Of a DNA stretch of 64,000 bases, positions 60,225 through 62,977 are shown piece after piece. The DNA comes from Trichodelitschia bisporula (lineage: Eukaryota), in contig ML996687.1 in assembly GCA_010356995.1 (NCBI GenBank), forward strand, positions 559,803 to 623,802. The letters run 5' to 3'. The notes under the pieces are model-generated. The model made no database searches. It had not been told where the DNA came from and saw only the letters and a program-made list of their open reading frames with translations. A program made the position numbers and the translations under genes. Position 1 is the first letter of the stretch. Each line of letters begins with the position of its first letter.

Positions 60225-60309
<85 letters not shown>
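60225..60309. repeat. 85-nt poly(C) homopolymer
   Basis: Uninterrupted C run directly visible. Confidence 0.95.
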
Positions 60310-60470: not shown

Positions 60471-62537
60471 ATGCTGCGCACCCTCCCGCGGTCCCCCCGC
60501 CCCCACACCCGCCTCTTCTCCTCCCGCCGCACCTCGCCCTACGAAAGCACAATCGCGAACCTAAACATCGGCGCCCACACCCGCGTCATCTTCCAAGGCT
60601 TCACGGGGAAACAAGCTACGGCCAATGCCATTGAGTCGCTGGCATGGGGCACCAATATCGTCGGCGGCGTGAGACCCGGCAAAGAGGGCGAGCACCTGGG
60701 TCTGCCCGTGCTGCCCTCCGTCCGCCGCGCAATGGCCGAGCTGAAGCCCGACGCAACGGGTATCTACGTTGCGGCGCACCAGGCGCCGGCGGCGATTGAG
60801 GAGGCGATTGAGGCGGAGGTGCCGCTCATCGTCGCGGTCGCGGAGCACATCCCGCTCCACGACATCCTGCGGGTGCACCCCTCCCAAACCTTCCCGGCTC
60901 TCAAAATCACCAACTAACCACTCCGCCAGATCCACTCCATCCTCCAAACCCAATCCAAATCCCGCCTCGTCGGCGCCAACTCCCCCGGCATAATCTCCGC
61001 CCTCGGCAAATGCCGCATCGGCTTCCAACCCCTCCCAACCTTCTCCCCCGGCCACGTCGGCATAATCGCCAAATCCGGCACCCTGAGCTACGAAACCGTC
61101 GCGGCATTGACAAGGCAGGGCGTGGGGCAAAGCCTCTGCATCGGGATGGGCGGCGACGTCGTCGCAGGAACAGACTTCGTCGACGGCCTGCGTGTCTTCG
61201 AACACGACACCGACACCCACGCCATCATCCTCGTAGGCGAAGTCGGTGGCACGGCCGAAGAGGAGGCCGCGGAGTGGATCAAAGCGTATCGCGCCCGCAC
61301 GCCGAACCCCAAGCCGATAGCCGGCCTGGTTGGCGGGCGGACGGCCCGGCCTGGCACCGTTATGGGACATGCGGGTGCGTGGGCGGGGCCCGGTCAAGCG
61401 AGCGCGGCGGAGAAACAGCGTGTCCTGGAGGAGGCAGGCGTCGTCATGGTTGACCACCCGACGAAGTTCGGCGGCCTGATGAAGACGCTGCTTGCGCAGC
61501 GCGGTGCTCCCACCTCTGCGTCCAGCGGGGGCGGAAGCGGAACCATCCCCGCCCAGGCCCGCGGCTTCCACACCCTGCGCCGGCCGCACGTGCGCCCCGC
61601 CCCCGTGATGCAGAAACGCAGTCTCCACCTCCGCGCCGACCAAGCCGCCACCCTCCTCGCCGAGCACGGGATCCGCACCTCCGCCCTGCCCGCCGGGACT
61701 CCGCCCCGCAGCCTCGTGCTGACAATCGACCGGACCATGCGCTCACCCGTGCTCATCGCCTCTTCCGGCACCGGGCCTGCTACACATACCCCCTTCTCCT
61801 ACGCCGGCGGCCCGTCGCCGAGCGAAGCCATGGCCGCAGTGCGCGCGCTGGATCTCGACACAGCCACACCGGCCGCGGCAGATGCACTAGAGCTGATCGT
61901 CGCGCTGTGGGGGCTGTTTCGGCAGTACGAGGGCATCGAGCTGCGATCCCAGGTAGGCGTCGCGGCGGGGAAGCTGCTGGTTGCGGAGCCCGAGTTCACG
62001 TTCGACGACGCGGCGTTCCGGTCGAGCGGGCGGCATGCGGAGCTACATGGGCAGCGGGACGTGACGGGTGTTGATCCGATGGAGCTTGCAGGCGAGGCAG
62101 CGGGGATCGTGTACGTGAAGCTCGACGGGGAGGACCGGAATATCGGGACCGTGGTCAATGGCGCTGGGCTGGCGATGAACACGGTTGACGCGCTAGAGGC
62201 GCAAGTTGGTGGTCTTGCGACGAATTTTCTGGACACGGGTGGGAAGGCGACGAGTGAGACTGTCAAACGGAGTTTTGAGCTTGTGCTTGCGGATCCGAGG
62301 GTTAAGGTTGTGTTTGTGAATATTTTTGGCGGGTTGACGTTGGGGGATATGATTGCCCGGGGAGTGGTTATGGCGATGAGGGAGTTGGAGGTTCATGTGC
62401 CGGTTGTGGTGAGGATTCGGGGGACGAGGGAGGAGGAGGGTCAGGCTGTGATACGGGAGAGTGGGTTGAAGGTTTTTGCGTATGATGGGTTTGAGGAGGC
62501 GGCGCGGAAGGTGGTTGAGTTGGCCAATCGGTCCTGA
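60471..62537 (+). CDS. Fused succinyl-CoA synthetase-like alpha+beta protein (~669 aa)
   Basis: Alpha: RVIFQGFTGK, LVGANSPG, KSGTLSYE, GQSLCIGMGGD, GEVGG, MGHAGA. In the same frame, beta: IGTVVNGAGLAMNT, NFLDTGG, VNIFGG, VVVRIRGT. One intron 60873-60929. Confidence 0.92.
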
Positions 62538-62977
62538 ATGGGGGTTGCATAGCGTTCCTGTTGGGGATAGAGCGGTACTGAGGCTTGTATGGCTGCTCTT
62601 TGGCCGTGGGGGCCAAATATGAACTTGTATATGATGCATCTCGCGATTCGCGCTGGAGGCAAAAATGTGCTCACTGCAGGAGCCTTAACTGGCCTGATAT
62701 ATGCCAGAGTTGATGTTTTGGCTTCCCTATTCCTCACATGTAGTCGCCGGCTCCCGCCCAGTAAAGTGACATATCTTGCAGATGAATCTCAATGTACGCC
62801 TCCAAAAGCGCTGCAGCCAAAACTCGCCGTTCATTTTCCGCATCTCAACCTTCCCAGTTGGGTAACCGAGAGTTTGGCCATCACCGGTCACCTGACAACG
62901 CGCAAATGCGCGACATGAAATTTGATATCCCCCCCTCATCCCTACCACCAGCCTTCCCCGTCCGCAATTCCCACAAT

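Follow-up and report, generated by a model that had tools for sequence, protein, structure and literature searches.

A fused fungal succinyl-CoA synthetase with an invariant phosphohistidine site and a nucleotide site that has lost its ATP-grasp lid

Succinyl-CoA synthetase (SCS) is the textbook enzyme of substrate-level phosphorylation in the tricarboxylic acid cycle, and its two active sites are joined by a swinging phosphohistidine loop. What becomes of such an enzyme if one of the two sites is removed? The question is raised by a gene of the fungus Trichodelitschia bisporula, located at 60471-62537 on the forward strand of a 64,000-nucleotide stretch of contig ML996687.1 (positions 559,803 to 623,802; hereafter the window). 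The gene encodes an SCS alpha subunit and an SCS beta subunit in one polypeptide, and an earlier note on this DNA had remarked that the beta half lacks the ATP-grasp motifs by which SCS binds its nucleotide. Here, we describe a family of fungal proteins in which the lid of the ATP-grasp fold is deleted and the remaining nucleotide-site residues have drifted, and in which the motifs of the other active site are invariant. Such proteins may have kept one half of the SCS reaction.

The gene consists of two exons and a single intron. Exon 1 (60471..60872, from the list of open reading frames, ORFs) encodes residues 1-134, that is, the leader and the alpha CoA-binding domain up to residue 134, whereas the remainder is encoded by exon 2 (60930-62537, from the ORF list and the sequence). 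The sole intron (60873..60929) is 57 nt long, has GT..AG borders and contains a ctaac motif resembling a branch site. The conceptual product of 669 amino acids is letter-for-letter identical to the database record P0001, 'succinyl-CoA synthetase-like protein [Trichodelitschia bisporula]'. Spliced contigs from two public sequencing runs, X1 and X2, cover 60477-62670 and 60508-62682, beginning just after the ATG at 60471 and extending past the stop codon. Their single joint skips the 57 nt of the predicted intron, and they contain no further joints and no inserted or omitted letters. Both runs come from one sample of one study and their label as RNA is a guess, so that the evidence used here is the spliced joint only. 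Since the contigs lack the intron, a spliced form exists; the gene is expressed. Furthermore, because the contigs span 61614-62140 without another joint, nothing is spliced in or out within this region.

The same data bear on the most trivial explanation, namely, that a missed exon, a frameshift or an assembly error conceals a normal ATP-grasp domain, a missed exon being what the earlier note had named as able to overturn its claim. The ORF is uninterrupted from 61107 to 62537, and tblastn searches of the window with four canonical betas, including their N-terminal regions, matched the fused gene only and revealed no N-terminal ATP-grasp segment. In addition, the short spacer described below recurs in 30/30 independently predicted orthologues. 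No point in support of an artefact was found; its probability is negligible, and for practical purposes it is already refuted.

The product begins with a leader of mitochondrial type, which is followed by a complete SCS alpha, by a disordered linker of ~38 residues and by a beta portion of 306 amino acids (residues 364-669 of 669), in agreement with the ~300 estimated earlier. Residues 1-23 of the leader resemble a presequence, with six Arg and no Asp or Glu, suggesting that the protein is targeted to mitochondria. The rest of alpha (residues 135-325; 60930..61502) carries the KSGTLSYE, GEVGG (Glu238) and MGHAGA motifs and corresponds to positions 113-289 of the 291 positions of the NCBIfam sucD profile (NF004230), which the alpha part as a whole spans end to end. 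Only three Pfam families are found in the product: CoA_binding (PF02629; E 2.7e-17, residues 36-126), which is present in 30/30 family members, Succ_CoA_lig and Ligase_CoA (PF00549; E 1.5e-44). The latter matches in two stretches, the best of which comprises residues 542-663, within the beta C-terminal CoA-ligase domain (residues 531-669, with the stop codon 62118..62537) and its NGAGLAM, NFLDTGGKAT and NIFGGLT motifs. By contrast, ATP-grasp_2 (PF08442) gives no match to the protein at E <= 1. Consistently, the sucC profile of NCBIfam (NF001913) is aligned at positions 154-386 of 388 only, at 191 bits versus a cut-off of 370. The sucD equivalog cut-off of 336 is not reached either, exon 2 scoring 191.3 bits and exon 1 89.8 bits; the exons were scored separately and sum to ~281.

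To locate the missing part, 16 family members and nine betas with canonical motifs were aligned using MAFFT, whereas family-wide counts were taken from 30 sequences. In the family, the first beta element (residues 364-382, SLHLRADQAATLLAEHGI; 61617..61673) is still present; it is the counterpart of the canonical MxIHEYQAKxLLxxxGV, with a strand at 366-368 and a helix at 370-379 in the structural model. After it, the family rejoins the canonical sequence at a strand ending in 'DR'. We define the spacer as the stretch from the Leu of the first beta helix to the Arg of this strand. It is 24 residues long in the T. bisporula protein and 22-29 in 30/30 family proteins, versus 102-111 in 9/9 canonical betas, which bears out the direct jump described in the earlier note. 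At the junction, QAATLLAEHGI (ending at residue 382) is followed by RTSALPAGTPP and then by RSLVLTIDR (ending at 402) and TMRSPVLIASS. The 11-residue connector (residues 383-393; 61674..61706) replaces a lid subdomain of ~80-90 residues. Because the spacer is shortened, Lys46 and the GGRGK loop are gone, and the columns of K46 and G52-G55 (the Gly-Gly-Arg-Gly loop) are gaps in 16/16 family rows, as expected from the earlier observation that KAQ..GGRGK is absent. The loss is internal, the first helix and the large ATP-grasp subdomain being retained (pLDDT, the per-residue confidence of the model, ~90). The lost piece is presumably the small ATP-grasp subdomain that, in the E. coli enzyme, closes over the nucleotide.

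The large ATP-grasp subdomain that remains (residues 394-530; 61707..62117) is degenerate at the residues of the nucleotide site, site II. With columns numbered by a bacterial reference (P0219), which agrees with E. coli at E197, N199 and D213, all five positions considered are conserved in 9/9 canonical betas. In the family, Glu197 is found in 15/30 sequences, Asn199 in 2/30, Asp213 in 4/30 and Lys215 in 3/30, while Pro200 is not found at all (0/30). The T. bisporula protein has Arg, Gln, Val, Glu and Glu in columns 197, 199, 200, 213 and 215, respectively; ELRSQV stands in place of EINPL and EPE in place of DAK, as had been read from the sequence before. In the HMMER pairwise alignment, a two-residue gap pairs the 'IE' of IELRSQV with the 'IE' of IEINPM. 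Whether the T. bisporula protein keeps Glu197 is, judging from the two alignments, dependent on the alignment, but the lack of conservation across the family is not.

The possibility that we are dealing with an ordinary SCS that depends on a nucleoside diphosphate (NDP), binds it through the remnant or a new pocket and carries out substrate-level phosphorylation has to be considered against these results. Databases name the family as ordinary SCS alpha subunit or as succinyl-CoA ligase or synthetase throughout, a weak ATP-grasp_2 match is obtained for 6/30 members (best E 1.2e-05), and an FDDAA..R segment common to canonical betas is invariant in the family. Nevertheless, no class of residues known to contact the nucleotide phosphates or Mg is both present and conserved, all members lack ~80-90 residues of the fold, and the T. 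bisporula protein itself has no Pfam ATP-grasp match. Thus, as the lid is deleted and the remaining site-II residues have drifted family-wide, NDP-coupled substrate-level phosphorylation is very unlikely.

An AlphaFold2 model built from the 30 family sequences (predicted template modelling score, pTM, 0.78) is consistent with an SCS fold from which one piece has been removed. Residues 1-27 and 330-363 are disordered, whereas the ATP-grasp remnant, taken with the first beta element (residues 364-530), is well folded, with pLDDT of ~83-96. In Foldseek searches, the alpha half superimposes on SCS alpha chains with a TM score of 0.93 by target and a root-mean-square deviation of 1.9 A, and the beta half aligns over ~295-303 columns to SCS betas of 385-420 residues. 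Similarly, structural search of the ESM Atlas aligned 293-297 residues to canonical betas of 386-432 amino acids, with TM scores of 0.86-0.90 by query. In VIA-align, the alpha half reached Z ~36 to human, pig and E. coli SCS alpha; the matches of the whole model were all to the alpha half and added nothing for the beta half.

The motifs of site I are invariant. These include His281 of MGHAGA (codon CAT, 61368..61370), Glu238 of GE.GG and Lys182-Ser-Gly-Thr-Leu in alpha, as well as Asn544-Gly-Ala-Gly-Leu-Ala, Asn566-Phe-Leu-Asp, Asn598, Phe600, Gly601 and Gly602 in beta, all conserved in 30/30 sequences; the C-terminal beta domain is therefore as intact as previously described. The homologous His246-alpha of SCS is the histidine that becomes phosphorylated (PMC10342173). 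Mean column identity is highest in alpha (0.82) and the beta C-domain (0.78, with 50/139 columns invariant in the family) and decreases through the ATP-grasp remnant (0.58) and the linker (0.41) to the 11-residue connector (0.27). The loop of the catalytic His281 is preceded by Val in 24/30 family members (VMGHAGA; 61359-61376, residues 278-283), whereas canonical alpha subunits have Arg at this position (RMGHAGA). The change from Arg to Val before MGHAGA may be linked to the loss of the half-reaction at the nucleotide site.

The family occurs in many Pezizomycotina and in Mycena. The same architecture (~640-760 amino acids) was found in all of the at least 120 matches of the homologue search, and the taxa among the matches listed include Dothideomycetes, Eurotiomycetes (Aspergillus fumigatus Af293, EAL90410.2, and Penicillium), Leotiomycetes and the basidiomycete Mycena; a Sordariomycete member is known from Thermothelomyces (P0271). 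The Mycena proteins are 56-60% identical to the T. bisporula protein, and in a quick tree one of them (P0014) is sister to the latter within the Dothideomycete members, with support of 99 in the Shimodaira-Hasegawa-like approximate likelihood ratio test (SH-aLRT), which suggests transfer from an ascomycete or contamination. In a quick maximum-likelihood phylogeny of the shared beta region (41 rows, none of them a named housekeeping fungal Lsc2), all 15 rows with the fusion group together at an SH-aLRT of 100, and the stem leading to their clade is long (0.93 changes per column). This clade is nested in a larger one (SH-aLRT 96) together with a group of beta paralogues typified by P0196, degenerate stand-alone forms, P0187 and P0164; the eight bacterial betas and four unnamed eukaryotic ones fall outside it.

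Stand-alone betas of the P0196 type, for example from Rhizodiscina, Fusarium and Colletotrichum, thus share a clade with the fused family, but they are ~400-430 amino acids long, are not fused to alpha and mostly have a full-length ATP-grasp; PF08442 is found in all of the at least 120 rows of the P0196 search. The clade was considered as the source of the housekeeping beta and rejected, as it represents a patchily distributed accessory paralogue. Rhizodiscina lignyota carries both a fused member (P0006) and P0196, a stand-alone beta with a complete ATP-grasp; in this relative at least, the fused gene is a supernumerary paralogue. None of the 120 matches listed for the P0196 query is from T. 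bisporula. Three P0196-type betas (P0361, P0365 and P0413) are fused or merged with short-chain dehydrogenase domains (PF00106, PF13561, PF08659). GGRGK, EINP and DAK have been lost in further fungal beta-like proteins: P0187, an 817-residue beta-then-alpha fusion; P0164, a tandem duplicate from Atractiella; and the stand-alone P0199, P0200, P0207, P0212 and P0221, the first four of which include proteins of Aspergillus sclerotioniger, Cordyceps and Fusarium. In this group of fungal beta paralogues, the nucleotide site seems to have decayed repeatedly.

It could accordingly be asked whether the fused proteins are catalysts at all. A non-catalytic derivative, for instance a protein with the SCS fold that senses CoA or succinyl-CoA or has a regulatory or structural role, would be in line with the loss of one of the two active sites, with the long stem branch and with the independent loss of nucleotide motifs in the five degenerate stand-alone betas, which suggests relaxed constraint in the paralogue group. 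However, the catalytic His, the stabilising Glu and all site-I loops are retained across several fungal classes, a histidine is not needed for mere binding, and alpha and the beta C-domain are conserved like housekeeping enzymes. We regard such a derivative as fairly unlikely; an active enzyme is favoured over a pure pseudo-subunit because the phosphohistidine and all site-I motifs are invariant. Of the inference in the earlier note, the structural part is well supported, in that the alignment, the spacer and the site-II columns extend the loss of the nucleotide site to the whole family. Any of the three functions that it suggested (a nucleotide-independent enzyme, action on another acid or a regulatory role) may apply, although a pure pseudo-subunit sits poorly with the invariance of site I.

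As is well established, site I of SCS turns succinyl-CoA and phosphate, by way of succinyl phosphate, into succinate, CoA and phosphohistidine, and the loop then delivers the phosphoryl group to the ATP-grasp (PMC10342173). Our tentative proposal, to which we assign a probability a little below even, is that the fungal protein is an active 'half-SCS' confined to site I, generating phosphohistidine from acyl-CoA and phosphate independently of nucleotide and without transfer to NDP. Such a half-reaction is the simplest reading of a family whose site I is complete and unvarying and whose site II has been lost to deletion and decay. Site I comprises the CoA pocket of alpha, the phosphohistidine loop, the N-termini of the two 'power helices' and the acid-binding beta C-domain, whereas site II, the place where phosphohistidine would phosphorylate ADP or GDP, is lost. 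In the first step, acyl-CoA and phosphate would yield acyl-phosphate and CoA; in the second, acyl-phosphate would react with His281 to give the free acid and phosphorylated His281, from which no phosphoryl group would be handed over to a nucleotide. Two outcomes could follow: (a) a ping-pong, phosphate-dependent CoA transfer via the phospho-enzyme, in which succinyl-CoA or a closely similar dicarboxyl-CoA is the donor and a second acid the acceptor, or (b) net hydrolysis of the thioester, if water resolves the phospho-enzyme or the acyl-phosphate. Resolution of the phospho-enzyme by a partner protein would be a further route. The mitochondrial location, the ability of site I to catalyse and the kind of net reaction are inferred.

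Several points weigh against an active half-SCS. A free-standing phospho-enzyme would be stuck for want of an acceptor unless it were hydrolysed or reacted with a second acid, and in the literature consulted neither resolution was found for any SCS relative; nor did open-access full texts and preprints yield biochemical data on any family member. The large ATP-grasp subdomain is kept and moderately conserved and may have a function, for example as a docking site for a protein that brings in a nucleotide or a different phosphoryl acceptor. The correspondence of Glu238 to Glu208-alpha of E. coli is our assumption from the GE.GG motif, not from a numbered alignment. Finally, as far as residues tell, there is little sign of a new acid specificity, although it may have changed. 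Among columns that are near-invariant in both sets, the beta C-domain differs from canonical betas at few positions (T541, S582 and L603 in place of C, A and I, respectively), and inspection of the alignment by eye adds AMNT for AMAT, FLDTGGKAT for FLD.GGGA and GGLT for GGI as family-specific. The acid-binding motifs are almost canonical, with NGAGLAM and NIFGG the same as in the canonical consensus; therefore, there is no positive sign of a second substrate beyond these few family-specific residues.

The retained subdomain is also relevant to an alternative in which the protein is a partner-dependent ligase: the phospho-enzyme would form at site I and the acceptor site would be supplied in trans by a separate protein, such as the ATP-grasp of a full-length beta paralogue, another ATP-grasp protein or a nucleoside-diphosphate kinase. 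A precedent is provided by ADP-forming acetyl-CoA synthetases and other NDP-forming acyl-CoA synthetases (ACD-type), in which domains 1-2-5 and 3-4 can reside on different chains. The fungal protein belongs to the same superfamily and shares with the ACD type domains 1, 2 and 5 on one chain and phosphohistidine chemistry; its domain content (1, 2, a remnant of 3/4, and 5) is like that of an ACD alpha chain, and there is a weak match to the TIGR02717 profile (AcCoA-syn-alpha; E 1.2e-16). The large ATP-grasp subdomain is retained and folded, and Rhizodiscina lignyota has a candidate partner in P0196. However, the beta-binding surface of alpha is already taken by the protein's own fused beta C-domain, and the half-site that remains conserves neither Glu197-beta nor the Mg ligands, which would be unexpected if the lid were provided in trans. 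Partner dependence is, in our estimate, quite unlikely. ACD-type enzymes differ from the fungal protein, for which no partner is known, in that their ATP-grasp (domains 3-4) is complete, whether fused or carried by a second chain. Membership of the ACD type was rejected, since the TIGR02717 score of 60.5 bits lies below the cut-off of 567 and there is no ATP-grasp coding segment in the window. By its best beta match and the phylogeny, the fungal fusion is a descendant of eukaryotic SCS rather than of ACD.

Indeed, the closest known system is mitochondrial SCS (SUCLG1/SUCLA2; Lsc1/Lsc2 in yeast, SucCD in E. coli). The alpha half shares 44-46% identity with human, pig and E. coli alpha; the phosphohistidine motif, the CoA-binding domain and both CoA-ligase domains are common to the two systems, and the beta part matches human ADP-forming SUCLA2 best (residues 120-394). 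The differences are the single polypeptide with alpha preceding beta, the deletion of the lid (K46, GGRGK and the hinge), the unconserved Glu197-beta, Asn199 and Asp213, the V-M-G-H in place of R-M-G-H and the scores below both equivalog cut-offs. ATP-citrate lyase (ACLY) and citryl-CoA synthetase similarly contain SCS-like modules fused in one chain, and the fungal alpha part aligns with ACLY residues 487-816 (VIA-align Z ~28). Nevertheless, in ACLY beta precedes alpha, and the complete ATP-grasp, the citrate-binding insert and the citryl-CoA lyase domain of that enzyme are all missing from the fungal protein. ATP-citrate lyase was rejected as an identity, as the three Pfam families listed above are the only ones found and the chain ends at the beta C-domain; a marginal Citrate_bind match occurs in 1/30 family members.

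The linker (residues 326-363; 61503..61616), with pLDDT <50 at 330-363, contains two conserved motifs. RG[YF]HT has R345 in 29/30, H348 in 30/30 and T349 in 29/30 sequences. QRR.LHL, at the end of the linker, has R364 and L366 in 30/30 and aligns with the presequence end and mature N-terminus of canonical eukaryotic betas, of which it is, by this alignment, a relic. Both motifs resemble sites of the mitochondrial processing peptidase, which have Arg at -2 or -3, and the fused protein may be cut at the linker into alpha' and beta'. A more specific and unlikely scenario is that a mitochondrial half-SCS moves CoA from succinyl-CoA to another carboxylic acid by means of catalytic phosphate and phosphohistidine, free of nucleotide, the protein perhaps being a polyprotein which mitochondrial processing peptidase cuts at RG[YF]HT and RR.LHL to give equimolar alpha' and lid-less beta'. 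If true, CoA transfer through phosphate and phosphohistidine would represent a third mechanistic way of moving CoA, next to those of the known CoA-transferase families.

Some further observations concern related sequences and the surroundings of the gene. In P0246, an unnamed, bacterial-looking beta-like protein of 301 amino acids, the 'DR' strand likewise follows directly on the first helix; scans of genome and metagenome contigs found no locus with this junction and returned only ordinary sucC, matching residues 22-301 at 62-71% identity at best. Among the A. fumigatus models of the group comprising P0279, P0280, P0283 and P0288, some of 890-903 amino acids share a 90% cluster with the 678-residue orthologue. 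A 280-residue member of this cluster is named adenylylsulfate kinase, and a neighbouring kinase gene may have been merged with the orthologue in the long models; no adenylylsulfate kinase neighbour is found in the window. Upstream of the T. bisporula gene, ~160 nt from the start codon, lies an uninterrupted run of ~85 C (G on the other strand; 60225-60309), within which a 172-nt contig of run X1 stops, at 60300. This run could be a real promoter or 5' untranslated sequence or an assembly oddity. The gene neighbours in the window (a leucine-rich-repeat protein, an amino-acid permease, a DAP3-like protein and two ORFs without a family) give no functional hint.

Searches of open-access full texts and preprints turned up no paper on a fungal SCS that is fused or lacks the lid. 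In the family described here, one SCS site has been cleanly excised while the other is invariant across several fungal classes, including A. fumigatus, Penicillium and many Dothideomycetes. If these proteins are inactive, they represent a well-defined pseudo-enzyme misannotated as 'succinyl-CoA ligase subunit alpha', and metabolic models would count a second SCS. If they are active, they would constitute a nucleotide-independent branch of the superfamily of NDP-forming acyl-CoA synthetases and an unrecognised step in fungal mitochondrial CoA-ester metabolism, such as control of the succinyl-CoA pool, protein succinylation, or the activation or detoxification of organic acids.

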